A stretch of DNA of 32,000 bases from Balneolaceae bacterium (GTDB lineage Bacteria > Bacteroidota > Rhodothermia > Balneolales > Balneolaceae): contig JAEPQH010000020.1 in NCBI GenBank assembly GCA_017640605.1, positions 1 through 32,000 of the forward strand, in the 5' to 3' direction. Below are positions 262-24,365 of this stretch, in pieces. Positions within the stretch are counted from its first letter, which is position 1. Each line of letters opens with the position of its first letter. The notes below the pieces were generated by a model that was not told the DNA's origin, searched no databases, and saw only the letters and a program-made list of their open reading frames with translations. The position numbers were made by a program, and so were the translations under genes.

Positions 262-2406
262 ATGTCGAACGAGAATAACGAAGCCAAAGCAAAATGGGAA
301 GCAACCGCAGAAAAAGCGTTGAAAGGAAAACCCGTTGAGTCGTTAAATCGAATGAGTCCGGAAGGGCTAACTATTCAGGCGCTGTACAATCAGGCTGATT
401 TGGAGCAACGTGGTATCGAAGACAGTTTTCCCGGTCAGTTTCCATTTAAGCGTGGTCCTTATCCAACCATGTACACCCAGCGTCCGTGGACGATCCGCCA
501 GTACGCCGGTTTCTCTACAGCAGAAGAATCGAATCGGTTTTATCGAGCGGCTTTAGAAAAAGGGCAGAAAGGGCTGAGCGTAGCTTTCGATTTAGCAACG
601 CATCGTGGCTTCGACTCTGATCACCCGCGTGTAGTGGGCGACGTTGGTAAAGCCGGCGTGGCCATCGATTCGGTGGAAGACATGAAGATTTTGTTTGATG
701 GTATTCCGCTTGATAAAATGTCGGTTTCTATGACCATGAACGGAGCGGTAATCCCAATCCTCGCAGCATATATTGTTGCAGCAGAAGAACAAGGAGTTGG
801 GAAAGAAGCACTGAGCGGAACCATTCAAAACGATATTCTGAAAGAATTCATGGTTCGAAATACCTACATCTATCCACCACAGGAGTCGATGCGTTTGGTT
901 TCGGATATCATTGAATACGCCAGCAACCACATGCCGAGATTTAACACGATTTCTATTTCGGGCTATCATATGCAGGAAGCTGGTGCAGATTCGGCGCTTG
1001 AGTTAGCGTTTACGTTGGCGGATGGATTGGAATACGTAAAAGCAGCGGTAGATCGAGGACTGGATGTAGATGCTTTTGCTCCACGACTTTCTTTCTTCTT
1101 TGCCATAGGGATGAACTTTTTGATGGAAGTGAGTAAGCTTCGGGCGGCACGCATGCTTTGGGCGGAATTAATGAAAGAACATTTCGATCCAAAAAATGCA
1201 AAGTCGATGATGTTGCGAACGCATTGCCAAACTTCGGGATGGTCGCTTACTGCCCAAGATCCGTTGAATAATGTGATTCGCACCACTATTGAAGCGATGG
1301 CGGCAGTACTGGGTGGTACTCAATCGCTGCATACCAACAGCTACGATGAAGCGATAAGCTTGCCAACCGAAACCTCTTCCCGAATTGCCAGAAATACCCA
1401 AACCATTATCCAGGAAGAAACTGACATTACACACACCGTTGATCCGTTAGGCGGATCGTATGCCATTGAATCAATGACGCACGATTTGAAAGAAAAAGCT
1501 CGCGAAATTATAAACGAAGTGTTTGAAATGGGCGGAATGGCTAAAGCCATCGAGCAGGGTTATCCTAAACGCAAAATTGAAGAAGCTGCAGCCATCAAAC
1601 AAGCCGGAATTGACAAAGGTGATATCACCATAGTTGGGGTAAACAAATACATCAACGACAAAGAAGATCCCGTTGAGATTCTCGACATCGACAATACTGA
1701 AGTTCGTAATAAGCAGATAGCTTTAATCGAAAAAATCAAAAACTCTCGTGATAATGCAGCTGTAAAAGAATCATTAGAACAAATCTTTGAGGCTGCTAAA
1801 AATGGAGAAGGCAATTTGTTGGATTTAGCTGTGGATGCTACTCGTAAAAGAGCTACCGTAGGAGAAATTTCCAGCGCAATGGAGCGTGCTTGGGGTCGCC
1901 ACAAAGCCAACAATCAAACCATAAAAGGAGTGTACGAAAGCGTGTATCAAAACGATGAATCTTATCAGCAGATAAAGAAGAAAATTGATGCATTTGCCAA
2001 AGAAGAAGGGCGTCGCCCAAGAATTTTGGTGGTGAAAATGGGGCAGGATGGTCACGACCGAGGTGCTAAAGTAGTCGCAACTGCATTTGCAGATATGGGG
2101 TTTGATGTGGATGTTGGTCCGCTATTTTCCACACCAGATGAAGCTGCCAAACAAGCTATTGAAAATGATGTGCACGTGATCGGAGTTTCCACCCTAGCTG
2201 CGGGACATAAAACTTTGATCCCCGAACTCATCAAGCTACTAAAGGAAGAAGGTGCAGATGATATAATGATTGTTGCAGGTGGTGTGATTCCTGTTCAGGA
2301 TTATGAGTTCCTATACAATGCCGGTGTGAAAGCTATTTTTGGGCCAGGAACGAATATTCCGAAAGCTGCTTCTGAAGTGATCGACGAAATAAGAGCGATG
2401 AAATAA
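262..2406 (+). CDS. scpA: Methylmalonyl-CoA mutase, single-chain large-subunit type with a C-terminal B12-binding domain
   Basis: 714-aa ORF. The N-terminal mutase barrel region has '[16 protein letters not shown]' and '[11 protein letters not shown]'. The C-terminal cobalamin-binding module has the DxHxxG motif in '[11 protein letters not shown]' and 'GVSTLAAGH'. The stop overlaps the meaB start (TAATG). Confidence 0.93.
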
Positions 2407-3371
2407 TGACGATAGCCCAGCTGGCAGAAGGCATATCATCCGGAAAAAGGCGCCCCTTGGCCAAAGCAATTACTTTGATTGAGAGTAATAGGGAAGATGA
2501 CCAAAAAAAAGCGGCCGAATTGCTTAGCACACTTCCAAAGCGAGATGATACGCTGCGATTAGGAATTTCGGGGGTTCCAGGCGTTGGTAAAAGTACCTTT
2601 ATCGAAGCGCTGGGAAATTTACTGATTAATCAAGGTCATAGAGTTGCGGTGTTAGCGGTTGATCCAAGCAGCCCAACTACCGGTGGTAGTATTTTGGGTG
2701 ATAAAACCCGAATGGAGGAGCTTTCAGGGAAAGAAGAAGCGTTTATTCGACCTTCGCCAACAGCAGGTACGTTAGGAGGAGTTGCTAAAAAAACACGAGA
2801 GTCTATTCGTTTATGTGAAGCCGCTGGATATGATATCATTTTAGTGGAAACGGTTGGGGTAGGGCAAAGTGAGTTTGAAGTGGCGTCGATGGTAGACTGT
2901 TTTTTGGTGTTGATGTTGCCCGGAGCCGGAGATTCACTACAAGGGATAAAACGTGGGATATTAGAAATCACCGATGTTCTGGTAATAAACAAAGCAGATG
3001 GCGATCAGAAGAAATTAGCAGAAATGGCAAAATCAGAATACAAACATGCATTTCACATGTTGGCGCCAAAATATCCTGGTACAGAAGCTGCTATTTTAAC
3101 CATCAGTGCGCTTCAGAAATCAGGCATTGAAGAAGTTTGGGAAGCTGTGAATACCTTTAAGCAGCATTTATTGGGTAACGACTTATTCATCAAAAACCGA
3201 AATAAACAAGAGTTAAACTGGTTTAAGCGCTTAGTTGAGGATGAACTGCTACATAAAGTGTGGAATCAAAAAAGCACGCAAAAATTTGTGAACGAATTGA
3301 AGCAAAGCATGTTGGCCGGCGAGTTAAGCCCAACTGAGGCTGCCCGGCGTATGATGGATGAAATAAGCTAA
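2406..3371 (+). CDS. meaB: Methylmalonyl-CoA mutase-associated G-protein chaperone (MeaB/ArgK family)
   Basis: 321 aa. Walker A 'GVPGVGKST', 'ETVGVGQSE' and the G4 motif 'NKADG'. Sits immediately downstream of the mutase and is translationally coupled to it. Confidence 0.9.
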   Translation: MTIAQLAEGISSGKRRPLAKAITLIESNREDDQKKAAELLSTLPKRDDTLRLGISGVPGVGKSTFIEALGNLLINQGHRVAVLAVDPSSPTTGGSILGDKTRMEELSGKEEAFIRPSPTAGTLGGVAKKTRESIRLCEAAGYDIILVETVGVGQSEFEVASMVDCFLVLMLPGAGDSLQGIKRGILEITDVLVINKADGDQKKLAEMAKSEYKHAFHMLAPKYPGTEAAILTISALQKSGIEEVWEAVNTFKQHLLGNDLFIKNRNKQELNWFKRLVEDELLHKVWNQKSTQKFVNELKQSMLAGELSPTEAARRMMDEIS

Positions 3372-9245: not shown

Positions 9246-9327
9246 ACTTTGGTTTTTAATTTGATGTCCCGTTTTTGTTCATTCAATTGTAATAGCAGTG
9301 AACGTTAATTTAAAATTTGGTGAAAGC

Positions 9328-9669
9328 ATGAATAAATATATGCTCATATTATTTGAATCCTCAGAAAATTATGCCTCCATGACCCCTCAGGAGTATCAGA
9401 ACGAAATAAATGAACACGCAAAATGGATAACCGAGTTAGGGGAACGTTATCATTCAGGGGAACCGCTGGAAAATGAATCATACTCGATACGTGGGAAAGA
9501 TAAGATTGTAACCGATGGACCTTTTATTGAAGCGAAAGAATTGGTGAGTGGTTTTTACATAATACATGCAAATAACTTAGAAGAAGCCACTGAACTTTCG
9601 AAAGGCTGCCCAATTCTGCGATTAGGTGGTTCTGTTGAAGTGCGGCCTGTAATGCACTTTGAGATGTAA
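9328..9669 (+). CDS. YciI-like / DGPF-domain protein
   Basis: About 113 aa counted from ATG 9328 ('MNKYMLILFE', a typical YciI-family N-terminus; the track ORF starts at GTG 9298). Contains the 'DGPF' motif ('VTDGPFIEAKE'). The stop overlaps the sigma-factor start (TAATG). Confidence 0.8.
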   Translation: MNKYMLILFESSENYASMTPQEYQNEINEHAKWITELGERYHSGEPLENESYSIRGKDKIVTDGPFIEAKELVSGFYIIHANNLEEATELSKGCPILRLGGSVEVRPVMHFEM

Positions 9670-10913
9670 TGCAGCCAAAAAATGAAATAATCGGCCGTCT
9701 TTTCAGGCAACAAGCGGGAAAGATGGCCTCTATTTTAATTGGAATGTTTGGATTCCAACATGCTGAACTTATAGAAGATGCCATCCAAGATACTTTTGTA
9801 GCTGCACTAAAAGTTTGGGGGATGAAGGGACTTCCGGAGCATCCCGAAGCTTGGTTAATGAAAGTAGCCAAGCATAAAACTATAAATGAACTGAGGAAAA
9901 AAGGAAGGCATAAAGAGCTAAATAAAGAGTGGAAAATAACCAAAGAAGAGGATGTTCAACTAAACTCTGAAAGTTTTACTGATAAAACTCTGGTGCACAT
10001 AAAGGCACTTTTTGGGTGTTGTAATCCATTACTTTCCCCGAAATCTCAAATAATGATTACGCTAAAGTATGTATGTGGCTTCGGCGATAAAGAGATTGCC
10101 CGTGCATTATTTATGGAGCAAGCTGCAGTTCGAAAGGCAATATATCGGGCAAAGAATGTTTTAAGAGAGCATCAGAATTTTTTACTTGAGTTATCTACGC
10201 AGGAGCTGAAACAACGATTGCCAATTGTTGAAAAAGTTCTGTATCTGATGTTTAATGAGGGATACTCAACCAGCAAGTCTGATTCTGTGTTTGATGCCGA
10301 CCTTAGCTTCGAAGCGCTCCGGCTAATAGATTGGATACTAGAAACAGAAAACCTTTCTGATGCCAGTACACATGCTTTGTATGCGCTGATGTTATTTCAA
10401 TTTTCTCGCTATGAAGCAAGATGTGATAAAAACGGGATACCACTAAGTATTGAAGAACAGAATCGGGAAATGTGGAATAAACAGGTAATAAAGAAAGGAT
10501 TATTTCACCAAAAGAAATCAAGAGAAACGGAAAAGCTGTCGAGGTATCACATCGAATCCGGAATTGCTTCTATCCATAGTACCGCATCCTCATACAATGA
10601 TACGAACTGGGATCAAATAATAACTTTATACCGACAGTTATTGACTTTCGATGACTCTGTATCAGTGAGAACTAATTTGGCTATCGCACTATGCGAACAA
10701 GGAGAAATTGAAGAAAGCCTGAATCTTCTGCATTTGTTGGTTAAATCTGAGCAAAAGAATAATTCGGTTATTTATGCATCTATTGGAAGAGTGTATTCAA
10801 AAAGTGGAGAGATTGAAAAAGCGATATCAAGCTATAATCTAGCCAAGAAACACTGTTCAACAAGATATGAGAGAGCTTTTATTGATAAAAAATTGCTTGA
10901 ATTAACTTATTAA
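9669..10913 (+). CDS. ECF-type sigma-70 family factor with a roughly 240-aa C-terminal helical/TPR-like extension (ECF42-like)
   Basis: 414 aa. Region 2 'EDAIQDTFVAALKVW...EAWLMKVAKHKTINELRK'. Region 4 HTH 'GFGDKEIARALFMEQAAVRKAIYRAKNVL'. A long C-terminal extension ends in TPR-like repeats ('GRVYSKSGEIEKAISSYNLA'). Confidence 0.85.
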   Translation: MQPKNEIIGRLFRQQAGKMASILIGMFGFQHAELIEDAIQDTFVAALKVWGMKGLPEHPEAWLMKVAKHKTINELRKKGRHKELNKEWKITKEEDVQLNSESFTDKTLVHIKALFGCCNPLLSPKSQIMITLKYVCGFGDKEIARALFMEQAAVRKAIYRAKNVLREHQNFLLELSTQELKQRLPIVEKVLYLMFNEGYSTSKSDSVFDADLSFEALRLIDWILETENLSDASTHALYALMLFQFSRYEARCDKNGIPLSIEEQNREMWNKQVIKKGLFHQKKSRETEKLSRYHIESGIASIHSTASSYNDTNWDQIITLYRQLLTFDDSVSVRTNLAIALCEQGEIEESLNLLHLLVKSEQKNNSVIYASIGRVYSKSGEIEKAISSYNLAKKHCSTRYERAFIDKKLLELTY

Positions 10914-11182: not shown

Positions 11183-13036
11183 ATGGTTGGGAAAAAACAC
11201 AAATGGCTATTAATACTTACGGTTGCCTTTTTAAGCACTGGTATTATTGCCCAAACATTACCCGGACAGGTAGCAGCTACCGATGTTCAGGAGGAGGCTG
11301 CTAAGTACGAGCAGTATTACGAAGTAATTCTTAACAACGCTTTGTCGGATTATTACCGGCGCGGGACTTTTATAGTTGACGCCAAAGCAACTCTCGAAAG
11401 AGTATTGGTTCCTCGAGGCTACGAAGTAATAGAGGGAGAAGAACCAGTCAGGATCGAAAATTTACCGGGACTTCCTTTTGTCCCCCCAAATCTACAGCGA
11501 TCCACTAATGGTACTACCGACAGCCTAAAGGCATCCGGTTTTGATGCGCGTTTCAGACTGACCCGACTTAATATTAAAGTACTGGTTGATACTTCTTATA
11601 GTGATGAAGATGTCGAGTTTGTTGAAGAAGCTACCTCATTGATTGCTAATGCTGATCCTTTTCGGGGTGATATTGTAACTGTAGAAAAGAAAGTTTTTCC
11701 AAGAAGTGCCCGAGCTATTCAGCAAGATGTTCGAGAACGAGCTGCAAATAATCAGGATGCAGAGAAAGAAGAACCTCAGGTTGAGTTGTTGGAACCGGTA
11801 ACCAATCAACAAGAAAATGCAGAACCCGAAAAAAACATGTTTTTGGGAATCGATTGGAATAATCCGCAACACCTTATCTATGTAATTGCAATTTTAGGGA
11901 TACTATTCCTTATTGCTGTATTGTTCGCTCTGTTGCGAAAGCCATCAAAAAGAGATGAAGAATATAGAATGCCTCCAATGCAAGGGTATGAAGGAATGAT
12001 ACCGGCATCGGCAGCTGATACTAAAAAGGAAGAGCCAAAAGGTCCGGACGCTAAAACTTTGGCACAACACGAAGAAGATAAGACCTACGTAACCAATTCT
12101 TGTATAAGTCATCCGGATATAGTAGCCGACTTAGTAGGGCAATGGATTGCTAGTGATGATGAGCAAGGCATTATACGTTCTGCAAGATCACTTAGCAGCG
12201 TGGATGAGAAATTGATTAACGTGTTGGAACCCCATTTAAAAGTAGAACACTACGAATCGGTTAAATTTGCTATTCAAAATTTAGAGCCTATTCCAATTGA
12301 TGAAAAAATAGAAGAGGTAAAGGCATTGCGACGAAGCATGCAGCAGGTTAATACTAAAAACGGTACTGCTGATTCCGGCTCTAATCTGTTCGATTTTGTA
12401 TATCAATTAACAGACGTTCAATTATTACACTTAATTAAAGAAGAATCGGACGAATTGGTGGCAATTCTGTTAGCACAAATTGCAGGCGAGCGAGCTGGTG
12501 TAATTCTACAGAAAATGGAGGATCAGAAACGGATATCAATCCTTCTTAAAATGGGAAAGATCAATAATATCCCAATATCGGTGTATAAAAAAGTGGCGGC
12601 CCATTTCTCCAATAAAGCCTTGTCGGTTTCGGATATGAAATACGTTGCTGCAGATGGTATCGACTCGATACTTACCACTTTGGAAACAATGCCGCTTTCG
12701 GAACAAGACGATTACGTGCGATCGATAGCCGAACAGGATCTGAATCTGGCAAAGCGTATCAAGAAGTTCTTTATTGGTTTTGATGATCTACCGAAAGTTA
12801 AAGACGAGTTTGTTCAAAGTGCACTGGAGGATATCCAAACAGAAACACTAATTCTGGCACTTAAAACAGCACCAGCTGCAGTGCGAGAAAAGATTCTGAA
12901 AGTGCGTCCGAAACGAGAGCAGCAGCTCATCCTTTCTGAAGTAGATAATCCTGCTGAGGTACCAAAAGCAAGTATTGAAGACGCACAGAAAACAGTATTG
13001 TATGCTGTTCGCCGAAAAATGAAGACTGAGGGCTAA
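11183..13036 (+). CDS. Membrane protein combining an FliF/SctJ-like periplasmic segment, a TM helix and an FliG-like cytoplasmic region (rotor-like fusion)
   Basis: 617 aa.
- Signal/anchor 'WLLILTVAFLSTGIIAQ'.
- Periplasmic aa ~123-173 'RLTRLNIKVLVD...ANADPFRGDIVTVEKKVFP' resembles the C-terminal periplasmic motif of FliF (RLSVAV...RGD..V....F).
- TM helix at aa 231-251 (nt 11873-11935).
- aa ~401-617 align by eye with the Thermotoga/E. coli FliG middle and C-terminal domains ('FFIGFDDLPKVKDEFVQSALEDIQTETLILALKTAPAAVREKILKVRPKREQQLILSEVD...IEDAQKTVLYAVRRK').
- An SD-like AGGGG lies upstream of the ATG. Confidence 0.8.
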   Translation: MVGKKHKWLLILTVAFLSTGIIAQTLPGQVAATDVQEEAAKYEQYYEVILNNALSDYYRRGTFIVDAKATLERVLVPRGYEVIEGEEPVRIENLPGLPFVPPNLQRSTNGTTDSLKASGFDARFRLTRLNIKVLVDTSYSDEDVEFVEEATSLIANADPFRGDIVTVEKKVFPRSARAIQQDVRERAANNQDAEKEEPQVELLEPVTNQQENAEPEKNMFLGIDWNNPQHLIYVIAILGILFLIAVLFALLRKPSKRDEEYRMPPMQGYEGMIPASAADTKKEEPKGPDAKTLAQHEEDKTYVTNSCISHPDIVADLVGQWIASDDEQGIIRSARSLSSVDEKLINVLEPHLKVEHYESVKFAIQNLEPIPIDEKIEEVKALRRSMQQVNTKNGTADSGSNLFDFVYQLTDVQLLHLIKEESDELVAILLAQIAGERAGVILQKMEDQKRISILLKMGKINNIPISVYKKVAAHFSNKALSVSDMKYVAADGIDSILTTLETMPLSEQDDYVRSIAEQDLNLAKRIKKFFIGFDDLPKVKDEFVQSALEDIQTETLILALKTAPAAVREKILKVRPKREQQLILSEVDNPAEVPKASIEDAQKTVLYAVRRKMKTEG

Positions 13037-13038
13037 CT

Positions 13039-14124
13039 ATGAAAAGAATAGCACTGCTTGGTTTTCTGATACTTATAGTTGGTAGGGTAGAAAATTCTCA
13101 GGCACAAACTCATGAAGAAGGTGTGCCCTACCAGATGGAATTGATTACAAATCAGATGGTGGATCAGTTAAACGATATTCCTGCAAACATACGTAGGGTA
13201 GCTGTTTATAAGATGAACTATAACGCCATGCGTTTTACGATGCAGGAAGTAGAATTCATCCGAGGTGAAATAGAATCATCTCTTCGAACTTATGCTGGCC
13301 TAACCGTACTTTCACCTCCTGAACTGGAGCCCAATGATAAAATGAAAATCTTTGGTAGCGACAGTACTCTTCAGATCCTAAATATTCAAGGTAGGTCGTT
13401 AGCTGATGTTTCTCCTGATTTTTTATCCGAAATTACTACAAAATATGGTGTAAATGGATTAATCGAAGTAGGACTACAGCGCCGTAACCCTGACGGCTTG
13501 ATCTTGTCGATACGAATGATGAACCCAAGCTCAAGAGAAATTGTATGGTCAAAAAGTTTTATTGCCAATCCATTTGAAGTGGTTGAGAAAGTAGATAAAG
13601 GCAATACTTTTATTCTTTCCTTTGGTGCCGGTTCGATGCAAACAGATTCTAAATTCAGGGCAGACACTTCTTTTGCCAATCAGGATACTTCGATAAGTAA
13701 TCCAGTGTTAAATTATGGAGCTAATTTCACTTATCGCCAGCCATTAAACAAAGAAAATAGTGCCTACTTAGGTTTTACAGGAGGTATAGATATTTTGCGT
13801 TCTACTCGAGATGAGGATTTTAACCTGATGCTTCTTCAATTGGGTGTTACCTATTATCAGGCATTAACAACCGAAAAGAACGAGGATATTGATGATTATC
13901 GAATGATGGTATTTCTTAATACCAATGTTAAGTTTCCAATTAGCTCAACCAAAGGTGAATTGTTTACTGCAAAGCCGGGTATCATGTTTAATATGAGTAA
14001 AAACCTTGGTTTATCATTTTACACAAGCTTGATTTTATCTGGCGAAGAATTGACGTTAAGCAATAACGATAGAATAACTTACAATAAGGTTGGATATGGT
14101 GTACATGCGGTTGTCAGATTCTAA
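13039..14124 (+). CDS. Secreted envelope protein: periplasmic alpha/beta N-domain plus a probable small outer-membrane beta-barrel
   Basis: 361 aa. Cleavable signal 'LLGFLILIVGRVENSQAQ'. The C-terminal half has alternating hydrophobic beta-strand patterns and ends 'GYGVHAVVRF' (a terminal Phe, typical of OMPs). The start is 2 nt after the upstream stop, with GAGGG upstream. Confidence 0.6.
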   Translation: MKRIALLGFLILIVGRVENSQAQTHEEGVPYQMELITNQMVDQLNDIPANIRRVAVYKMNYNAMRFTMQEVEFIRGEIESSLRTYAGLTVLSPPELEPNDKMKIFGSDSTLQILNIQGRSLADVSPDFLSEITTKYGVNGLIEVGLQRRNPDGLILSIRMMNPSSREIVWSKSFIANPFEVVEKVDKGNTFILSFGAGSMQTDSKFRADTSFANQDTSISNPVLNYGANFTYRQPLNKENSAYLGFTGGIDILRSTRDEDFNLMLLQLGVTYYQALTTEKNEDIDDYRMMVFLNTNVKFPISSTKGELFTAKPGIMFNMSKNLGLSFYTSLILSGEELTLSNNDRITYNKVGYGVHAVVRF

Positions 14125-14716
14125 AATTATACTATTACTCGCGTTGGTAGCATTTGCTGGCTATAGTTGTAAATCAACCGAAGCTGCACAAGAAACTACG
14201 CAACCAACTATGCAGTCCATGACAGATGTTGGAACCACTGAAAGTGCCAATCAAGCTGAAAAAGGAGAAGAACAGGGCAATCCTGTTATAGTAACTTACC
14301 GTAATGCAAGTTCAGCCATACAGATAACTTTAGACCCGAACAAAGATGAGTTTTATCTGGATCTAAAAGGAATGACTCCCACAGAATCCGACTCGATTAT
14401 TGTGGTGGATTCATCAATGGTTAAAAATCGTGCCCGCGATATTCAGTCTTTGTTGTCGAGTTATCGAAAAGCACAGGATTTATTTTATCTGGGGGAATAC
14501 AGAGAAGCTTTAGATGAGGTTGAAAAGACTCTCAAGATTCAAGAAACAGCAGATGCATACGCTCTTAAAGGAACCATCTTTTTCATGATGGAAAACATCA
14601 CAGCAGCGCGGGCAAATTGGAATAAAGCGGTTCAAATGGATCCAAATATTCCGGTGCCTAGCATACCTGAATTAGAAACTTTAATAAACGAACTACGAGA
14701 GGACGGTGGACAATGA
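14105..14716 (+). CDS. TPR-repeat protein, probable lipoprotein
   Basis: About 203 aa counted from ATG 14105 ('MRLSDSKIILLLALVAFAGYSC'; the track ORF starts at 14090). TPR-like repeats 'YRKAQDLFYLGEYREALDEVEKTLKI...AYALKGTIFFMMENITAARANWNKAVQMDP'. The stop overlaps the next start (ATGA). Confidence 0.65.
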   Translation: MRLSDSKIILLLALVAFAGYSCKSTEAAQETTQPTMQSMTDVGTTESANQAEKGEEQGNPVIVTYRNASSAIQITLDPNKDEFYLDLKGMTPTESDSIIVVDSSMVKNRARDIQSLLSSYRKAQDLFYLGEYREALDEVEKTLKIQETADAYALKGTIFFMMENITAARANWNKAVQMDPNIPVPSIPELETLINELREDGGQ

Positions 14717-15531
14717 GGCTTTCGTTAACCAATATACTAGGGGTAATTTTCAGCATTGGCATATTAGTATTCGGAATAACCGAAATAACCAATGTAACAA
14801 CAGTATTAAGCTCAATCCCGGCATTATCGCAATATACATTTTTGAATCTGCCTAGTTTATTTATTGTGATGGGTGGGATTTTAAATGCGGTTTTCATCAC
14901 CTATCAACCAAAATATGTAGGGCAGGCTTTCGCAGGACTTTTTTACCTATTCAGTCAGGCAAAAACTTCGTCAAAAACATTGGAAAATGATTTGGGTGAG
15001 ATGCTGGTGTGGAATGATCAGATCAAAAACGACAGAGTAAATGCACTCTCGAAATTGGAAGACGAACACACAGGAGAAGTCTCAGGTTATTTATTCTCAC
15101 TTATGAGTACCAATTATTCTAATGATGATATCAAATCCTTTGGCTCTAATCACATTGAAGAACAGTATTTTCGCCAACTTGTAGTAGTAGATGTGCTGCG
15201 TGCTATGGGTGCTGCCGCGCCTTCCTTTGGTATGTTTGGTACCTTATTTGGACTGGTAGTTATGCTTGGACAACTCGAAAATCCATCGGGTATGGGGCCT
15301 GGACTTGCAGCTGCTTTAATAACGACTTTATACGGTATTTCGCTTGCACGATTTATTTTTTACCCGATTGCAGAAAAAATTAAAAATGTAGCTCAGCTCA
15401 ATCGATTTCGTGAATACTTTATCCTCGAAGGTGTATTGTTGATTAATGAGAAAAAATCATCGTTTTACATTCAGGATAAGTTGAGCACTTATTTGAGAAG
15501 AGATTTCAAAAATAAGCAAGTAGCAGACTAA
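14713..15531 (+). CDS. motA: MotA/PomA-type stator proton (ion) channel subunit
   Basis: 272 aa. Two N-terminal TM helices, a ~95-aa cytoplasmic loop, then 'AAPSFGMFGTLFGLVVML' and 'GLAAALITTLYGISLARFIFYPIAEKI'. This is the MotA-type TM3/TM4 signature with both conserved prolines, not the ExbB/TolQ pattern. Confidence 0.85.
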   Translation: MRLSLTNILGVIFSIGILVFGITEITNVTTVLSSIPALSQYTFLNLPSLFIVMGGILNAVFITYQPKYVGQAFAGLFYLFSQAKTSSKTLENDLGEMLVWNDQIKNDRVNALSKLEDEHTGEVSGYLFSLMSTNYSNDDIKSFGSNHIEEQYFRQLVVVDVLRAMGAAAPSFGMFGTLFGLVVMLGQLENPSGMGPGLAAALITTLYGISLARFIFYPIAEKIKNVAQLNRFREYFILEGVLLINEKKSSFYIQDKLSTYLRRDFKNKQVAD

Positions 15532-15543
15532 GGGAGGCTTCCG

Positions 15544-16236
15544 GTGATTAAGCGCGAATACGGCGGGAATTCAGATATTCAGGAAGAACATATTGAGGAT
15601 CAGGAATGGTTGCTCACATATAGTGATATGATCACCCTGTTGCTTGCATTTTTCGCAATGCTTATTGCCGTTTCTTACGTTGATTTAAATCTGTGGGAGC
15701 AAATGAAGCAAGGACTACGGTCAGAAATATCTAAACAAGAGGATGTTCGTACCCCACTAGCTGAAGTAAAAGCAGATTTGGATTCCCTACTGGCTGAAGA
15801 AAAATCACAAGGCTTAGTAGATATTACACTCGACCGTGACGGTATAAAATTATTCTTTTCTAGTAGCTCGTTTTATCAATCGGGTGAAGCTCAATTATTA
15901 CCGACCGGCCAGAGAATTATCGACAAAGTAACACAAGCCATGAACGCGCTGGATTTCTACAAATTTAATGTAGATGTAGAAGGACATACAGACAATGTTC
16001 CCATCAACACGCCAATATATCCGTCGAACTGGGAATTGTCGGTGGCAAGAGCCTCCGGTGTGGTAAAATATTTTATTGAAGAAGGTATTGAAGCAGAACG
16101 ACTTAAAGCGTCGGGCTATGCCGATACCAAGCCGGTAGTGCCACATGTGGATGAAGAAGGCAGGAATATTATTGAGAACAGAGCCCTCAACAGAAGAATT
16201 GTTGTACGTATTTATTATCAATTGGCAACAAACTGA
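15544..16236 (+). CDS. motB: MotB-type stator subunit with an OmpA-like peptidoglycan-binding domain
   Basis: 230 aa. GTG start preceded by GGGAGG at a 6-nt spacing. 'WLLTYSDMITLLLAFFAML' is the MotB TM/plug signature with the channel Asp. The C-terminus has 'GHTDNVPI...NWELSVARA...GYADTKPV...NRRIVV' (OmpA family). Confidence 0.88.
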   Translation: MIKREYGGNSDIQEEHIEDQEWLLTYSDMITLLLAFFAMLIAVSYVDLNLWEQMKQGLRSEISKQEDVRTPLAEVKADLDSLLAEEKSQGLVDITLDRDGIKLFFSSSSFYQSGEAQLLPTGQRIIDKVTQAMNALDFYKFNVDVEGHTDNVPINTPIYPSNWELSVARASGVVKYFIEEGIEAERLKASGYADTKPVVPHVDEEGRNIIENRALNRRIVVRIYYQLATN

Positions 16237-16281: not shown

Positions 16282-19215
16282 ATGCCTATGAAAATACTAT
16301 TACTTTCGCTGTCACTACTTTTTTTCGGGATTCAACAAGTACACGCTCAATCCATATCCGACTCAACCACTACCAGTATATTTTCGTCCAAAGCTCTATA
16401 TCAGTCAGATGTTTTAAGGGCGTTATCAGGACTCGCACCGGGGCTCATAATTCACTCTACAGGTGGAGTTTCCGGAACAGGGACAAATCCTGTTTTTCGA
16501 AGCTATTCGAGCTTAAATGCGCCCAGCAATCCATTAATAATAGTTGATGGCGTCAGGTTTGATGGGGCAAATAATCATAATAGCAGCGCATTTAACGGAG
16601 GAGGTTCTCTAGTTACTCCAAACCGATCTTTCGATCTTCATCCTTCCGAAATTGTTTCGGTGAATGTTTTAAGCTCACTAGAAGGTACATTTTTGTACGG
16701 CGAAGAAGCCACAAATGGAGTTATTGAAATTACAACCAGAAGAAACGCAATCGATTTAACCAGAGAAGGCTACGAGCTTACAATAGATCAAAGTGTTTAT
16801 TCCACGAGTATGTCGAGCCGACCGGATTATCAAAACCAATTTGGAATGGGTTTTAACGGTCAATATGGTCCATTTTTTAGTTCCTGGGGAGCCTCTTTTG
16901 ATAGCCGGGATCCTGCAGATTTTCCATCCAATTTTAATGGACTGGATAACGATGGTGCTGTATTAGTAGATCATCCTTATGGTTTTTACAATTTCACAAG
17001 TGATGGTGCTCCTGATTATGCCACCGAAGTGTATCGCTATGAAGCAAGAGAAACCCCTACCGATGCTTACTTCAGAAATGGTATTGGAAGTCGTTCATTT
17101 ATAGATTTGAATTACAAAAAAGGGAGCACTTCCTGGAGTTTCAATTACGCCGGAAATCAGGAAGAAGGCTTTACGCCCAACAATGCTTTTCTTAAAAACA
17201 GTTTTGGAAGCTCCGTTAAGTATCAACTTTTAGATAATGTACATGGTACATCAAGTTTACAGTTTTTATTTACGGATGTTAAAATGCCACCCTTATCGGC
17301 AGGAAGTGGAAGTGGAGTTGTAGAAGGTGGAGCAACAACAGGAGCATTCACCTACCTGTTTTTTACTCCGAGGTCTATCGACTTAGCACTACCAAATAGT
17401 TCGCCCGATAATAATGGCTTTACCTATTACCGCCCGGATATAATTCATCCTGTTTGGTTTGCAAATAATGCCTCAACCACTAATGAAACCAATCGCATAC
17501 TGGGTAAAACTGCCCTTCATTTTACTCCCTCAGATCGATTTCAATTCAACTACACCTATACATTTGATAGTTACGATGAGAATCAGGAGTACAAGCTAAA
17601 TCCTACGGGGACTTTCAACTTTCCTTATGTATTAGGGCTCTACCAAACCATTGAAATTGATCGAACGCTTCTCGATAATTTTGCACTTGCTACGTATCGT
17701 CCAAATTTAGGGAATAGGCTCTTTGCAGAAGTGCGACTCGGTGGGCATTATATGAGCGAAAATATTAATGAAAAAGGGCTGGAAAGCACCGATATACGAG
17801 AGTATGGTGTTTTTGAACACGATAATTTTAGGGTTCAAAGCTCTACGAATTCATTTACCAACGAGTTGATGGAAAGAGAGTTTGAACGCCGATCGTTTGG
17901 TGCATTTGGCTCGATGGAGTTAGAGCTTGATCGATGGATATATACTGATGTTGGCGTTCGCAGGCAGTGGAATCAATCGCTGCATCAACAAGATATGAAT
18001 GCGGTTTATCCTTACGTCACTTTTGGTGTAATTCCATCAAATGTGCTGGTGGATAATGACGAAATCCTGAGCAATTTAGATTTCTCATTTTCTTATTTCA
18101 CATCAGGCAGATCGATTTTAACAGAACTTGAAATTTTAGTACAAGATCGGCCCAGTGTTGGGTTAAACGATGAGTTAAAACCAGAAAGATCAATTGAAAA
18201 ACAAGTTGCGGCAACGGTCGGTCTATTTAAAGATCGAATTTCTTTCTCCGGGAAATATTATCAAAGAATACATACCGATTTAATCTCCAGAATTGCTGTA
18301 AATCCTACACAAGGCTTCGGCTCGATACTCGATAATTTACTCGAAATGGAAGTAGAGGGCTTTGATGCTCAGGCGGTATTAGTACCACTCGAAGGAAAAG
18401 TTAATTGGAAGATTATTTCGAATTTTAGCACCACCAAAGCAGACGTTAAAGAATACACAGGTACTTTTAATGCAATTCAATTAGGAAATAGCCAATCTTT
18501 TCGGGGAAATCTGGCTCAGGTTAATGAACCTTATCTAAGCATGTATGGTAGTACCGTTTTACGGGTTACAAGTGATATTCAGAGGGCAGATCCCAATATG
18601 AGATCTGTTCCCATTGGCACACCAATTATCGATAATAATGGAAATTACCTTACCGATCAGAATGATATTATCGGAAACCCAATACCCGACTGGAATCTCT
18701 CTACCTTACAACAAGTACGGTACAAGAACCTAAGCTTTTCTATTCAGATTGATTATCAAAGAGGGGGCGACATGTACAGTAGCTGGATTAGTTCACTGGT
18801 TGGAAGGGGTTTAATTTCATCAACGCTCGACAGAGAAGAGACATTTATTATTGAAGGTGTAAAATTTGATGGTACTCAGAACGATATTGAGATCAGTAAG
18901 CAACAATACTATTTCAGTAATCTGGGGTTTGGCCCCGATGAATTGAGAGTTTATGATATGACTCATTTACGCATTTCTCATATCGGGTTTTCATATCAAG
19001 TTCCGCAGCAATGGATTACAAAAACAGGGTTTAAAGAGGTAATTATTTCCTTTTCGGTAGAAAATGCCTTTCTGAAAATGTACAATATTCCAGAAGGTAC
19101 AGGTTTTGATCCGAACGTAAACTCGAATGGGGCAGGACTTAACAATCTAGGTTTTGAATACTTAACCGGTCCCGGTGCTCGTAGATTCGGTGGTTCGTTA
19201 CGAGTTCGCATATAA
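16282..19215 (+). CDS. SusC/RagA-like TonB-dependent-receptor-family outer-membrane protein (plug plus large beta-barrel)
   Basis: 977 aa. Signal 'LLLSLSLLFFGIQQVHAQ'. Plug-like region 'DVLRALSGLAPGLII...NPLIIVDGVRFDG...EGTFLYGEEATNGVIEITTRR'. The remainder is long and rich in aromatic/Gly beta-strands, ending 'RFGGSLRVRI'. Confidence 0.8.
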   Translation: MPMKILLLSLSLLFFGIQQVHAQSISDSTTTSIFSSKALYQSDVLRALSGLAPGLIIHSTGGVSGTGTNPVFRSYSSLNAPSNPLIIVDGVRFDGANNHNSSAFNGGGSLVTPNRSFDLHPSEIVSVNVLSSLEGTFLYGEEATNGVIEITTRRNAIDLTREGYELTIDQSVYSTSMSSRPDYQNQFGMGFNGQYGPFFSSWGASFDSRDPADFPSNFNGLDNDGAVLVDHPYGFYNFTSDGAPDYATEVYRYEARETPTDAYFRNGIGSRSFIDLNYKKGSTSWSFNYAGNQEEGFTPNNAFLKNSFGSSVKYQLLDNVHGTSSLQFLFTDVKMPPLSAGSGSGVVEGGATTGAFTYLFFTPRSIDLALPNSSPDNNGFTYYRPDIIHPVWFANNASTTNETNRILGKTALHFTPSDRFQFNYTYTFDSYDENQEYKLNPTGTFNFPYVLGLYQTIEIDRTLLDNFALATYRPNLGNRLFAEVRLGGHYMSENINEKGLESTDIREYGVFEHDNFRVQSSTNSFTNELMEREFERRSFGAFGSMELELDRWIYTDVGVRRQWNQSLHQQDMNAVYPYVTFGVIPSNVLVDNDEILSNLDFSFSYFTSGRSILTELEILVQDRPSVGLNDELKPERSIEKQVAATVGLFKDRISFSGKYYQRIHTDLISRIAVNPTQGFGSILDNLLEMEVEGFDAQAVLVPLEGKVNWKIISNFSTTKADVKEYTGTFNAIQLGNSQSFRGNLAQVNEPYLSMYGSTVLRVTSDIQRADPNMRSVPIGTPIIDNNGNYLTDQNDIIGNPIPDWNLSTLQQVRYKNLSFSIQIDYQRGGDMYSSWISSLVGRGLISSTLDREETFIIEGVKFDGTQNDIEISKQQYYFSNLGFGPDELRVYDMTHLRISHIGFSYQVPQQWITKTGFKEVIISFSVENAFLKMYNIPEGTGFDPNVNSNGAGLNNLGFEYLTGPGARRFGGSLRVRI

Positions 19216-20292: not shown

Positions 20293-22095
20293 ATGATTCT
20301 TTCTACCATCGATTGGGGAATTCTTGGTTTATTCTTTATAACGCTGTTAGCTATTGGATGGTGGGCTTCAAAATCGGCCGGGAAAAATACGAAAGAGTTT
20401 TTTTTAGGTGGCAGAAATATGCCGTGGTGGTTATTGGGGATTTCAATGGTAGCAACCACCTTTTCTGCAGATACACCAAATCTTGTTACAGGGTTAATCA
20501 GAGAAAATGGAGTGGCAAAAAATTGGGTGTGGTGGGCTTTTTTGATAACAGGATTGGTCACTGTATTTATTTATGCAAAACTTTGGCGACGATCTGAACT
20601 TACTACCGATCTGGGAATGTACGAACTTAGATATGGTGGAAAGGCGGCTTCATTTTTAAGGGGATTTCGGGCCTTATATCTGGGAGTATTGTTCAACTGT
20701 TTAATCATGGGTACTGTTACTCTCGCGGCCATTAAAATTGGATCGGTGATGTTCGGCTTGCAGCCAATAACCATTGTAATCAGCCTTTCGGTAATAGTCG
20801 TTTTTTACTCTGCATTGGGCGGAATAAAAGGGGTGATTTGGGCAGATTTTTTTCAGTTCGGGATTTCTATGTTTGGTGCCATTTACGCAGCTTATGTAGT
20901 TATTCAACAACCGGAAATTGGTAGTCTTTCCAATTTAATATCACATCCCAATGTTGTTGATAAAATCAGCTTTTTTCCTGATCTGTCTAATCCATCTATA
21001 CTCATAAGTATGTTCATTATTCCCATTGCTGTACAATGGTGGGCGGTTTGGTATCCCGGTTCAGAACCCGGTGGAGGTGGCTACATCGCGCAACGAATGT
21101 TAGCGGCAAAAGACGAGGAAAATGCGATGGGAGCAACCTTGTTATTCAATGTTGCACACTATGCACTTCGGCCATGGCCTTGGATAATTGTTGCATTGGG
21201 ATCGTTGATTTTATATCCCGATCTGATGAGTATAAAGCAAGAATTTCCAAATATTGCCGATCAATATCTTGGCGATGATATCGCCTATCCCGTAATGCTA
21301 ACCAAATTAGGTCCCGGTTGGTTAGGCTTGGTTGTGGCTTCTTTAATCGCGGCATTTATGTCTACGATTTCAACACATTTAAATTGGGGAGCCTCTTATC
21401 TGGTAAGTGATTTTTACCAACGCTTTGTTCGTCCTGAGGCTTCAGAAAAAGAGCTGGTGCAAACAGGCCGGGTTGCTACGATTATTTTAATGATCTTTTC
21501 CGCATCACTTGCTCTAACAATTCTGGAAGATGCCACCCAAGCCTTCGATCTTTTATTACTATCCGGGGCAGGTTCAGGAGCCATTTATTTATTGCGCTGG
21601 TTTTGGTGGAGAATTAATGCATGGACCGAAATCGCAGCTATGATTTCAGCTACTATTGTAGCTATTGTACTAGTTTTTTGGGTGCCAGACGAAATTGTAG
21701 CAACCACGCTCATCGATGGTTCAACGGTAAAGCTTCTTATCGCTGTTTGCATTACCACGCTGGTTTGGATTGGTACTACTTTTGTTACAAAACCCGAATC
21801 GATGGAAGTATTAATCAGCTTCTATAAAAAAGTACATCCGGGCGGACCGGGTTGGCAAAAAGTAATTGACAGTGCTAAACAAGCTAATGTAGAACTCGAT
21901 GTCGATAATACTTCTTGGGATTTACCTATTAGTTTGTTGAATGTATTTTTAGGCTGTATCGGAATTTATTCGGCGTTATTTGCCATTGGGTATTTTGTAT
22001 ATGGAAATTTTGGAATGGGACAGATTTTCGCCGGAATATTTGGAATGTCGATTTACTTCATGTTACGAACATGGCCCAAAATGAATCTTGAATAA
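20293..22095 (+). CDS. Sodium:solute symporter (SSS) family transporter
   Basis: 600 aa with about 13-14 hydrophobic helices. The overall layout and segments such as 'FFLGGRNMPWW', 'GGGGYIAQRMLAAK' and 'AAFMSTISTHLNWGASYLVSDFY' are typical of SSS family members. Confidence 0.8.
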   Translation: MILSTIDWGILGLFFITLLAIGWWASKSAGKNTKEFFLGGRNMPWWLLGISMVATTFSADTPNLVTGLIRENGVAKNWVWWAFLITGLVTVFIYAKLWRRSELTTDLGMYELRYGGKAASFLRGFRALYLGVLFNCLIMGTVTLAAIKIGSVMFGLQPITIVISLSVIVVFYSALGGIKGVIWADFFQFGISMFGAIYAAYVVIQQPEIGSLSNLISHPNVVDKISFFPDLSNPSILISMFIIPIAVQWWAVWYPGSEPGGGGYIAQRMLAAKDEENAMGATLLFNVAHYALRPWPWIIVALGSLILYPDLMSIKQEFPNIADQYLGDDIAYPVMLTKLGPGWLGLVVASLIAAFMSTISTHLNWGASYLVSDFYQRFVRPEASEKELVQTGRVATIILMIFSASLALTILEDATQAFDLLLLSGAGSGAIYLLRWFWWRINAWTEIAAMISATIVAIVLVFWVPDEIVATTLIDGSTVKLLIAVCITTLVWIGTTFVTKPESMEVLISFYKKVHPGGPGWQKVIDSAKQANVELDVDNTSWDLPISLLNVFLGCIGIYSALFAIGYFVYGNFGMGQIFAGIFGMSIYFMLRTWPKMNLE

Positions 22096-22109
22096 TTAAA
22101 ACAATTACA

Positions 22110-23459
22110 ATGGATCGAAAAACATTTGTTAAAACCAGTACCGTTGCCACAGTTGGCACTGTATTAGGTGCACCAGCAGTATTGAAAGCAAAACAGCGAT
22201 CATCTAACACCATAAGAATCGGGTTTATTGGAACAGGATTACGAGGGCGAAATCATGTGAATAATATACTGGCTACTGAAGGAGTAGACTGTCCTGCCTT
22301 TTGTGATATCGACCCGGATGCCGTTGACAAAACAATGGCCATGTTCGAAGAAAAGAATAAACCGAAACCGACTGTCTATTCCGCAAACGAATATTCCTAC
22401 CAGGAAATGCTGGCTAAAGAAGACCTAGATGGTGTAATAATTTCAACCAATTGGCGATGGCATACAGCAATGTGTATTGCCGCGATGGAAGAGGGTGTTT
22501 ATGCAGGAGCCGAAGTTTCCGGTGCATTTTCGGTGGATGAATGCTGGGAACTGGTAAATTGCCATGAAAGAACCGGAACCCATTTAATGTTTCTTGAAAA
22601 TGTATGCTATCGCCGTGATGTGATGGCGGTATTAAACATGGTTAGGGATAATATTTTTGGCGAATTGGTGCATTTTAGAGGGGGTTATCAACATGATTTG
22701 CGAACAGTAAAGTTTAATGACGGTAATGGCGGTTTAATTTATGGTGATGGAAGCTATGGCGAGGCAAGATGGCGAACAGCCCATTCTGAACATCGGAATG
22801 GAGATTTGTACCCGACACATGGTTTAGGACCAATAGCTACATATATTGATATGAACCGCGGCAATCGATTAGTCTCGGTATCATCGCACGCAACTAAGGC
22901 AAGGTCGCTAAAGCACTTTGCCCAAAATCACCCTGATGGAGGCGAAAATCATCCGTATACAAAAATAAACTGGAAGCTGGGCGACATCGTAACATCTACC
23001 ATTACTACCGCTCGCGGAGAAACGATCATTTTAACCCACGATACAAATTTACCACGACCCTATTCACTGGGTTTTAGAGTGCAGGGTGTAAATGGTCTCG
23101 CCGAGTTCGATTATTACACAAAACGTGTACACGTTGAAGGCATTTCAGAATCGCACCGCTGGGATTTTGGGAATGAATGGTTCGAAAAATACGATCACGA
23201 GCTTTGGAAGAAATATGGAGAAGAGGCCGTTGGTGGAGGTCATGGAGGAATGGATTTCTTCCTCGATCGAGCCTTTGTAGAAAGTGTTCGTCGCGGAATA
23301 GAACCTGTGTTAGATGTATACGATGCGGCCGTAATGCGAGTAATTACACCGCTTTCTGAAATTTCGATTCAAGAGGGAGGAACACCTCAGCCAATTCCCG
23401 ATTTTACCGAAGGAAAATGGATAACACGTAACCCTGTATTTGGTCTTGGAGACCTCTAA
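22110..23459 (+). CDS. Gfo/Idh/MocA-family NAD-binding protein with a Tat-like signal; resembles glycoside hydrolase family 109
   Basis: 449 aa. N-terminus 'DRKTFVKTSTVATVGTVLGAPAVLKA'. Rossmann motif 'IRIGFIGTGLRGRNHV'. The size and the signal-plus-oxidoreductase-fold layout match GH109-type enzymes; that subfamily call is inference. Confidence 0.75.
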   Translation: MDRKTFVKTSTVATVGTVLGAPAVLKAKQRSSNTIRIGFIGTGLRGRNHVNNILATEGVDCPAFCDIDPDAVDKTMAMFEEKNKPKPTVYSANEYSYQEMLAKEDLDGVIISTNWRWHTAMCIAAMEEGVYAGAEVSGAFSVDECWELVNCHERTGTHLMFLENVCYRRDVMAVLNMVRDNIFGELVHFRGGYQHDLRTVKFNDGNGGLIYGDGSYGEARWRTAHSEHRNGDLYPTHGLGPIATYIDMNRGNRLVSVSSHATKARSLKHFAQNHPDGGENHPYTKINWKLGDIVTSTITTARGETIILTHDTNLPRPYSLGFRVQGVNGLAEFDYYTKRVHVEGISESHRWDFGNEWFEKYDHELWKKYGEEAVGGGHGGMDFFLDRAFVESVRRGIEPVLDVYDAAVMRVITPLSEISIQEGGTPQPIPDFTEGKWITRNPVFGLGDL

Positions 23460-23468
23460 AACAATAAT

Positions 23469-24365
23469 ATGTCAGCAACATTAGTAATTTTGGCGGCCGG
23501 ATTAGGCAGCCGTTATAAAGGATTAAAACAAGTAGACTCATTTGGCCCAAGTGGTGAACAACTGTTCGATTACACCGTTTACGATGCCATACGTGCCGGT
23601 TTCGATCAGGTAGTTTTTGTAATCAGGAAAGCATTTTCCGTCGATTTCGAACAATCTGTAAACAGAAAATTTGCCCACAAAATTGATGTTCGATTTGTGT
23701 ATCAAGAGCTGGATAATTTGCCAGAAGGTTGTACACCTGTGCCCGGTAGAGAAAAACCGTGGGGAACCGGTCATGCACTCTGGGTAACAAAAGATGTGGT
23801 ATCATCCCCATTTTGTATGGTAAATGCCGACGACTTTTATGGCGGTAAAGCCATTAAACAAATGCACGATTTACTACAAACTTTCGAACCGGGCGAGATG
23901 AATGCCGGAATGGTAGGTTATCTTTTAGACGACACACTTTCTGATTTTGGGAGTGTATCGAGAGGGATTTGTGATATTGAACGAGGCAACTTGAATGGAA
24001 TTGAGGAGCATACTCAGATCGAGAAGAAAGAAGATCAAATAATTTCAGTTCGAGAAGAAGGCGAGTACGTTTTGCCGCCAGATACTATTGTGAGTATGAA
24101 TTTAATGGGGTTTTCACCGGCTGTTTACTCATTGATGGAAGAAATGTTCAAAGCCTTTTATTATGAAAGTAAGCATCAGTTAAAAGCTGAGTTTTACGCC
24201 CCGCAGATTTTGAAAGAACTCATCGATCGAGGTGTACAAGTGCCTGTAACTGCTACCGACTCGAGTTGGTTTGGAGTTACTTACCCCGAAGATAAAGCTG
24301 AGGTTCAGAGAAATATTCAAAAACGTATACAAGAGGGTGAATACCCGGCGCAACTGTGGGAATAG
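23469..24365 (+). CDS. Sugar-phosphate nucleotidyltransferase
   Basis: 298 aa. N-terminal 'LVILAAGLGSRYKGLKQ' (nucleotidyltransferase GxGxR signature), 'PWGTGHA' and 'VNADDFYG'. Confidence 0.8.
   Translation: MSATLVILAAGLGSRYKGLKQVDSFGPSGEQLFDYTVYDAIRAGFDQVVFVIRKAFSVDFEQSVNRKFAHKIDVRFVYQELDNLPEGCTPVPGREKPWGTGHALWVTKDVVSSPFCMVNADDFYGGKAIKQMHDLLQTFEPGEMNAGMVGYLLDDTLSDFGSVSRGICDIERGNLNGIEEHTQIEKKEDQIISVREEGEYVLPPDTIVSMNLMGFSPAVYSLMEEMFKAFYYESKHQLKAEFYAPQILKELIDRGVQVPVTATDSSWFGVTYPEDKAEVQRNIQKRIQEGEYPAQLWE

Follow-up and report, generated by a model that had tools for sequence, protein, structure and literature searches.

FliF and FliG are regarded as specific to the flagellum, with the general remark that rotor proteins found in non-motile genomes may serve other functions (PMC12199754). 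Covalent FliF-FliG fusions engineered in Salmonella and Vibrio assemble rings and support motility (PMC10941966, PMC6079021), and a survey of the non-flagellar relatives of MotAB stators does not treat FliG partners (PMC12505986). Here we describe a natural FliF-FliG fusion gene in a 32,000-nt stretch of DNA from a marine Balneolaceae bacterium (positions 1-32,000 of contig JAEPQH010000020.1, assembly GCA_017640605.1; hereafter the window). The gene is the first of a five-gene cassette that also encodes its own MotA/MotB-like stator, and no description of either a natural FliF-FliG fusion or this cassette was found in the literature searched, coverage of which was incomplete. Our interpretation, to which we assign a probability of roughly 0.55, is that the cassette specifies a non-flagellar rotor-stator module of bacteria in the Fibrobacteres-Chlorobi-Bacteroidetes (FCB) group, in which a shortened natural FliF-FliG fusion serves as rotor-like partner to a Na+-type MotA/MotB pair of its own. 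What is new is the redeployment of flagellar rotor and stator parts as a stand-alone module, that is, known parts in a new arrangement.

Domain architecture of the fusion protein

The open reading frame (ORF) is present exactly as given in the initial annotation, which had read its product of 617 amino acids (aa) as a short FliF, a transmembrane (TM) helix and a FliG-like region that has lost its FliM-binding motif. The order of its parts is a signal peptide, a domain resembling ring-building motif 3 (RBM3) and the β-collar of FliF, a TM helix, a helix resembling the FliF tail, a FliG_N-like domain, and the FliG M and C domains:

11183..13036, + strand: FliF(RBM3)-TM-FliG fusion gene, 617 aa, cassette gene 1 (ORF, Pfam FliG_M and FliG_C, FliG matches in the PDB, orthologues, and the ratio of nonsynonymous to synonymous substitution rates, ω)
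11183..11251, + strand: predicted signal peptide, aa 1-23, probable cleavage at Ala23/Gln24 (basic n-region, hydrophobic core, invariant Q24)
11270..11707, + strand: periplasmic FliF RBM3/β-collar-like domain, aa ~30-175, with motifs LPGLP, RGD and FP (Foldseek, profile A3, YscJ_FliF_C, motif conservation)
11840..11935, + strand: juxtamembrane motif FLGIDWNNP and TM helix, aa 220-251 (hydrophobicity, flanking K/R, model helix, family conservation)
12050..12367, + strand: FliF-C-tail-like helix HPDIVADLVGQWI (aa 310-322), then FliG_N-like domain (aa ~326-395) (model confidence, profile A6, relatives)
12386..12634, + strand: FliG_M-like domain, EHPQR replaced by E-S-D-E...K (Pfam FliG_M 1e-7; alignment with Salmonella and Thermotoga maritima FliG)
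12659..13030, + strand: FliG_C-like domain with torque helix (R578, S585, E586) (Pfam FliG_C 8.3e-21; conservation of the R281 equivalent; ω 0.005-0.018)

The C-terminal half scores as FliG, exceeding the Pfam cut-offs of both FliG_C (aa 514-614, 74.7 bits against 23.3) and FliG_M (aa 413-484, 32.5 bits against 25), as had been anticipated from the letters alone. A phmmer search of the fusion against PDB sequences returned FliG chains only (4e-15 to 1e-9; 1lkv at 4e-15, Salmonella 8umd at 1e-14), with the alignment to full-length Aquifex FliG (3hjl) covering aa 309-615. With the full-length AlphaFold model (mean predicted local distance difference test, pLDDT, 67.5), Foldseek placed FliG first and FliF directly after, the fold alignment spanning ~315 columns of full-length FliG. 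The fusion segment 'LFDFVYQLTDVQLLHLIKEE' aligns with 'FSFVRDTDPVQLVNFLQSEHPQ' of T. maritima FliG, and 'AADGID' sits on the Gly-Gly linker 'KVGGID' of the same protein, which is where the initial annotation had put its 'DGID'. Unlike soluble FliG the fusion is membrane-anchored, and its score against the fliG equivalog TIGR00207 lies below the cut-off (85.9 against 226.7 bits); no NCBIfam model reaches its cut-off. Current database labels for family members are 'FliG C-terminal domain-containing protein', 'flagellar motor switch protein FliG' (JGI) and 'hypothetical protein'.

Residues of the EHPQR motif and the torque helix were mapped by hand from a gapless alignment block. Salmonella FliG E125, H126, P127, Q128 and R160 fall on E421, S422, D423, E424 and K456 of the fusion, in agreement with the proposed loss of the FliM-binding site, and the alignments show this loss to be family-wide, the E125 equivalent alone being conserved (71 of 91 members). 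In the torque helix, where charges had been noted at some positions, R281 corresponds to R578 and D289 to E586, while D288, K264 and R297 correspond to S585, K561 and P594; of the 91 family members, 90 have R or K at the R281 equivalent.

For the N-terminal half, the YscJ_FliF_C match of the fusion by itself is marginal (aa 122-169 against profile positions 93-144 of 147; E=0.2 with the whole protein, 0.015 with the isolated domain), and the likeness to the ring-forming region of FliF that had been proposed is borne out at the level of the family. Searching 1.84 billion representatives with a profile built from aa 22-232 yielded 137 clusters at 50% identity, ~90 of which have a signal peptide or TM segment, the FliF-like domain, a TM helix and FliG N-M-C. 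YscJ_FliF_C was matched individually by 31 of 40 diverse family members (best 1.2e-8), relative P0247 exceeding its gathering score (33 bits), and no other family recurred. A diverse profile (A3) run against 177,635 PDB sequences retrieved essentially FliF only, led by 9yh6 (8.5e-4, over the whole RBM3 fragment) and followed by the FliF chains 8z5s (0.0055), 12dr (0.0074) and 8z4d, an engineered FliF-FliG fusion (0.022), with the 'RGD...F' motif of the family aligned to the 'RGD...F' of FliF. This link needed the diverse profile, as a Balneolaceae-only N-terminal profile (A2) found nothing relevant among the PDB sequences.

The full-length model and a model of the N-terminal domain alone both show an α-ββ...ββ-α-β pattern in this domain, and in a Foldseek search with the N-terminal model ranks 1-15 were FliF S-ring/RBM3-collar structures, with SpoIIIAG at rank 12 and OsmC/Ohr folds later. 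LPGLP, the most conserved motif of the family, lies in a loop between two long strands and in the models would form the distal tip of a hairpin. Since the architecture of the profile family, the Pfam matches in relatives, the PDB profile matches and the fold search agree, the FliF link is well above chance, and the predicted presence of an RBM3/β-collar domain is convincing at the family level. It comprises RBM3 and collar only and has neither RBM1 nor RBM2, the periplasmic part being a single domain of ~200 aa with no PF01514 match in Pfam.

The N-terminus of the fusion ('MVGKKHK') is basic and is followed by a hydrophobic core, and Ala23-Gln24 is invariant among Balneolaceae fusion proteins, which we take to fit the Bacteroidetes 'Q-rule' for signal peptidase I sites. 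On these grounds the N-terminus is probably a cleaved signal peptide and not FliF TM1. The TM helix expected after the FliF-like segment was confirmed as a hydrophobic helix at aa 229-251 with one K/R before it and five after, is modelled by AlphaFold at aa 228-251 and recurs at the equivalent place in ~90 family representatives. The basic N-terminus and the charge bias around the TM helix predict that the FliG part is cytoplasmic; a periplasmic FliG would have spoken against the initial reading.

The junction between the two halves, aa 290-395, is the best-modelled part of the fusion (pLDDT 84-91). A family profile of this segment (A6) had as its best PDB match the engineered Vibrio FliF-FliG fusion (8z4d_1, E=9.3e-4), in two co-linear stretches, the FliF tail and then FliG_N. 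The conserved helix 'P-x-x-x-A-x-(V/L)-L-x-x-W-I' (aa 310-322) aligns with the extreme C-terminal FliF tail 'EPELAAQVVKNWMND', 'PDIVADLVGQWI' being set against 'PELAAQVVKNWM' of the Vibrio tail in a weak stretch (2.7 bits by itself), and W321 is kept in 83 of 91 family members. The isolated fusion segment has no Pfam FliG_N match; sub-threshold matches in 3 of 10 relatives (best 23.7 against 25 bits), starting ~45 residues into the segment, support the FliG_N-like segment of the initial annotation, as do the fold and the 3hjl alignment. The preceding helix is consistent with the FliG-binding C-terminal tail of FliF, and given its position directly before FliG_N the fusion looks like a fliF shortened by TM1, RBM1 and RBM2 and joined head to tail to fliG.

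The five-gene cassette and its stator

The strongest functional evidence, absent from the initial annotation, is the cassette with its dedicated MotA/MotB. All five genes lie on the same strand in the order fusion, 361-aa secreted protein, TPR (tetratricopeptide repeat) lipoprotein, MotA and MotB, the four downstream of the fusion being:

13039..14124, + strand: 361-aa secreted protein ending ...AVVRF, probably a periplasmic domain and a C-terminal outer-membrane β-barrel; starts 2 bp after the fusion stop codon
14090..14716, + strand: TPR lipoprotein-like protein, 208 aa, likely start ATG 14096 or 14105 (TPR_1 and TPR_2 above threshold; signal sequence ...AGYSC)
14713..15531, + strand: MotA/PomA-like stator A subunit (MotA_ExbB 8.6e-19; best NCBIfam models MotP and PomA); start overlaps the TPR stop (ATGA)
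15544..16236, + strand: MotB/PomB-like stator B subunit with plug, TM Asp (..TYSDMITLL..) and OmpA-like peptidoglycan-binding domain (MotB_plug 1.5e-13, OmpA 1.7e-16; best NCBIfam models MotD, MotS and MotB)

The closest solved relative of MotA is Vibrio PomA (6.5e-23). Equivalents of PomA P151, T158, T185, T186 and P199 are kept in 44-45 of the 45 family MotAs; 42 of the 45 have K or R at the R88 equivalent and 39 have an acidic residue at the E99 position; the K89 equivalent is not conserved. The Thr158/185/186 triad is a signature of Na+-driven stators, with Ala in the H+ types (PMC10374538), and because the triad is kept we predict a stator of the Na+ type. NCBIfam equivalog scores remain below their cut-offs for both subunits (best MotA-type 114.5 against 394 bits, best MotB-type 161.5 against 283).

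The junctions are tight, with a 2-bp gap between the fusion and the 361-aa gene, an overlap of the TPR ORF with the end of the latter, the ATGA overlap of TPR and MotA genes and a 12-bp gap between MotA and MotB genes; from the gap, the overlaps and synteny the five genes are predicted to form an operon. A sigma-70 promoter scan was not above chance (19 sites against 15.2 ± 3.9) and no TAnnTTTG motif was found upstream. The 361-aa protein is kept by all 39 Balneolaceae loci and by the distant loci L046, L047, L048 and L049. Typing of its family is weak (OMP_b-brl in 3 of 19 members, FlgO in 2 of 19; weak outer-membrane β-barrel matches in three or four homologues), and neither the protein nor its profile matched a PDB sequence. 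TPR homologues occur in most related loci checked, including a Bacteroidales locus that lacks FliG; in L045 there is no separate TPR gene and a TPR-like end is found on its ~1000-aa partner.

The two matches to FlgO, a flagellar H-ring/outer-membrane accessory protein, are below threshold (E=0.004 and 0.015) and come from the homologues at L046 9615-10679 and L047 7445-8554. This likeness may be a second echo of flagellar parts.

Distribution and selection

A scan of one genome per species identified 40 loci with full-length orthologues, one fusion copy per genome; those labelled to family are Balneolaceae, and a few are metagenome-assembled genomes (MAGs) with broader labels only. By tblastn, all 39 Balneolaceae loci long enough for the comparison have the five-gene order, at fusion identities down to 45%, and the flanking genes vary, the ±10 kb flanks of the 40 loci having been compared only with the window's own genes. 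Cultured carriers are Gracilimonas tropica DSM 19535 (locus L026) and Balneola sp. EhC07. The association of the fusion with MotAB is obligate, and fusion and MotA-MotB are adjacent in all seven distant members as well, in the following orders:

L041, L044, L045: fusion, 0-1 small (TPR-like) gene, MotA, MotB
L046, L047: fusion, two genes, MotA, MotB
L048 (Fibrobacterales MAG), L049: five-gene cassette in identical order

Both halves of the fusion are under strong purifying selection, with ω ~0.02 overall, ~0.01 in RBM3 and 0.005-0.018 in FliG_C, at synonymous divergence near saturation. The linkers change ~10x faster than the domains at the protein level.

In what we term 'Type B' loci (L041 1-7993; L045 674-5847; L042 534-3437), a ~1000-aa homologue stands in place of the 361-aa gene. 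This partner has sub-threshold CarboxypepD_reg, Usher and TPR matches and, across the distant loci, no informative PDB or NCBIfam match; an Usher identity (E=0.012) was rejected as too weak for use. Upstream of the ~1000-aa gene are paralogous ~280-aa Ig/Fn3-like genes and small genes that include a DUF4402 gene, an arrangement loosely reminiscent of chaperone-usher fibre loci, though none of the matches is significant.

Functional interpretation and alternatives

Under the proposed module, the RBM3 domains would assemble an S-ring-like ring above the inner membrane, as FliF does with about 33-34 subunits, which would place a FliG ring of 1:1 stoichiometry beneath the membrane. Na+-driven MotA5B2 units anchored to peptidoglycan would push the FliG_C torque helix, and rotation, or at least force, would pass via the single TM helix to the periplasmic ring. 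The LPGLP tip of the ring would engage the products of the two genes that lie between those of the fusion and the stator, the outer-membrane protein and the TPR lipoprotein. A one-polypeptide rotor is feasible because engineered FliF-FliG fusions form rings and support motility (PMC10941966). The output is not flagellar swimming; the 'minimal rotor', its rotation and its output are what we infer from these parts. That the module is a free-standing, flagellum-independent rotary machine, with a one-polypeptide S-ring/FliG rotor turned by Na+ MotAB and a ring acting on the outer-membrane protein and TPR lipoprotein, we hold to be possible though short of probable.

Several observations weigh against a rotor-stator module. 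An acidic residue is found at the D288 or D289 equivalent in just 51 of 91 family members, the family does not keep the K264 and R297 equivalents, and the PomA E96 equivalent is not kept in family MotAs. The model of the N-terminal domain is of low confidence (pLDDT 57 alone, 60-80 inside the full-length model). The cassette is not accompanied by a rod, an export gate or anything else that would obviously serve as axle or output, and Balneola vulgaris is described as flagellated and motile (PMC5167729). In some fused relatives that keep FliG and MotAB (L045 = P0233, P0242) the RBM3-like domain is preceded by a peptidoglycan-binding LysM domain, which is hard to reconcile with a freely turning ring. 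Lastly, relatives of ~300 aa (L042/L043 = P0163, P0166, P0227; Bacteroidales MAG) have a TM-LysM-RBM3-TM layout, lack both FliG and MotAB, and retain the TPR partner and the ~970-1000-aa partner, indicating that the RBM3 ring has a role independent of the motor.

The last two observations are what one would expect of a transducer of force or signal that does not rotate, in which FliG_C captures the rotation of the MotA pentamer and converts it, via the TM helix, into a pull, a conformational change or stator gating on a static RBM3 scaffold, much as TonB/TolA work with ExbBD/TolQR. The LysM-bearing fused relatives would then be tethered to peptidoglycan, the RBM3 ring of the FliG-less relatives would work without a motor, and an incomplete set of torque-helix charges would be no surprise. 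The cassette also recalls Tol-Pal/CpoB in combining a 5:2 motor, a periplasm-spanning inner-membrane protein, a TPR lipoprotein and an outer-membrane protein (PMC12204202). However, FliG_C is known only as a torque receiver on a ring, the ring-forming parts (FliG N-M-C, RBM3/collar) are all kept and strongly constrained, and the stator has a flagellar-type plug and a cytoplasmic domain nearest PomA. We consider such a transducer a serious alternative, though less probable than the rotor-stator module.

Far less probable is that the genes are divergent FliF/FliG and stator components of a real flagellum in motile Balneolaceae, as the account of B. vulgaris and the JGI label 'flagellar motor switch protein FliG' might suggest. 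No other flagellar genes were found in the window or in the annotated neighbourhoods of nine related loci, RBM1 and RBM2 are missing, EHPQR is lost family-wide and the fliG equivalog cut-off is not reached. The cassette is moreover carried by Fibrobacterales and by G. tropica, a species recorded as non-motile (PMC4642740); flagellar-assembly genes are reported to be missing from Balneola, G. tropica and others (PMC9909488), in a study whose supplement gives KEGG definitions only and no per-genome presence. For carriers, the lack of flagellar-assembly genes is taken from the literature, and for the genus Balneola PMC9909488 conflicts with PMC5167729.

Ancestors of the FCB group were probably flagellated and Balneolaceae are thought to be losing flagella (PMC9909488), so the cassette might be what remains of a lost flagellum, now functionless and decaying; this is effectively refuted by selection (ω ~0.02) and by synteny preserved across phyla, and the ORFs are intact and full-length in 40 genomes with the same architecture in ~90 divergent clusters. 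Equally remote is a C-terminal half of MgtE_N type or a generic armadillo-like superhelix with a superficial rotor likeness. Weak sub-threshold MgtE_N matches (4e-4 to 8e-4) in some distant members speak for it, but the fusion has no Pfam MgtE_N match at E ≤ 1, PDB sequence and fold matches of that half are all FliG and the gene is always accompanied by MotAB. The relic, ordinary-flagellum and MgtE explanations are therefore largely excluded.

There is a substantial chance that the rotor-stator module is a new type of envelope machine. It provides a concrete, strongly conserved case, in cultured hosts, of a natural FliF-FliG fusion that has lost its FliM site and comes with outer-membrane partners and a Na+-type stator of its own. 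Should the module turn or pull, the family of ion-driven 5:2 motors would gain a new output, structural studies and in-vitro reconstitution would gain a minimal rotor made of one polypeptide, and whether the rotor-stator core works without the rest of the flagellum would become tractable by experiment. A free-standing rotary machine, if true, would make the cassette a new class of rotary device spanning the envelope of FCB bacteria, whose rotor-stator core works with no type III export apparatus, rod or filament. It would have a direct bearing on the stepwise evolution of the flagellar motor either way, as a derived remnant or as a model of a pre-flagellar stage. In practical terms, 'flagellar motor switch protein FliG' labels can mislead genome-based predictions of motility.

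Other genes in the window

The cassette is directly preceded (9298-10913) by a YCII-domain gene in translational coupling with a gene for an extracytoplasmic function (ECF)-type sigma factor with a DUF6596/TPR C-terminal extension. The pair is immediately upstream only in the closest relatives (L001-L006, L013, L016), and is 5-10 kb away in several others, so it is probably not a dedicated regulator of the cassette. After motB lies a gene for a 977-aa SusC/RagA-like TonB-linked outer-membrane protein (16282-19215; TIGR04056 2e-67 but below the cut-off, and a weak Plug match), which was rejected as a cassette part; it is conserved only in the closest relatives and unrelated to the large partners of the distant loci.

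A sodium:solute symporter, a GH109-like NAD-dependent glycosidase, a nucleotidyltransferase and an APH-family kinase are encoded in a run at 20293-25402 and may form an amino-sugar salvage cluster; the nucleotidyltransferase and kinase resemble the AmgK/MurU pair of MurNAc recycling. A 685-aa protein encoded on the minus strand (27492-29549) has a Por_Secre_tail, the C-terminal sorting domain of type IX secretion, indicating that the organism has a type IX secretion system, and cargo genes of that system adjoin the cassette in L044. Genes for a methylmalonyl-CoA mutase (714 aa, with B12-binding domain) and then the MeaB GTPase chaperone (262-3371) belong to ordinary metabolism.

Comparison with known systems

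With flagellar FliF and FliG and with the engineered Salmonella and Vibrio fusions (8z4d/8z4g; PMC10941966, PMC6079021), the fusion shares RBM3/β-collar, the 'RGD...F' end motif, the TM helix, a conserved Trp in a helix resembling the FliF C-tail directly before FliG-like N, M and C domains, and the R281 equivalent; with the engineered proteins it also shares a 1:1 covalent stoichiometry. Unlike the engineered proteins it is natural. It differs from both in lacking TM1, RBM1 and RBM2, in having a probable cleaved signal peptide in place of TM1, and in the loss of EHPQR, and from the flagellar pair in that genes for FliM/N, export apparatus, rod, hook or filament are missing from its surroundings. 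SpoIIIAG and SctJ/PrgK have the same ring-building-motif fold with a β-insertion, but sequence-level matches go only to FliF/YscJ_FliF_C, and those proteins have neither a FliG part nor a MotAB pairing.

The stator resembles PomAB/MotPS (8brd/8bri; PMC10374538) in its four-TM A subunit with a cytoplasmic domain, P151/P199, the Thr triad and a basic R88 position, in its B subunit with plug, TM Asp and OmpA-like domain, and in the A-then-B gene order. In contrast to those stators, its equivalog scores are below cut-off, E96 and K89 have no conserved equivalents, the acidic residue standing at the E99 position instead, and its genes accompany those of the fusion, a TPR lipoprotein and an outer-membrane protein in place of flagellar genes.

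ExbBD-TonB, TolQR-TolA-TolB-Pal-CpoB, GldLM/PorLM, AglRQS and ZorAB share with the cassette an ion-driven 5:2 inner-membrane motor encoded with periplasm-spanning and outer-membrane or TPR partners, and a non-flagellar output. They couple by an axle resembling the B subunit or by a TM helix of the TonB/TolA type, and none uses a FliG domain or an RBM3 ring, whereas the coupling surface of the fusion module would be the flagellar one, the cytoplasmic domain of MotA against FliG_C.

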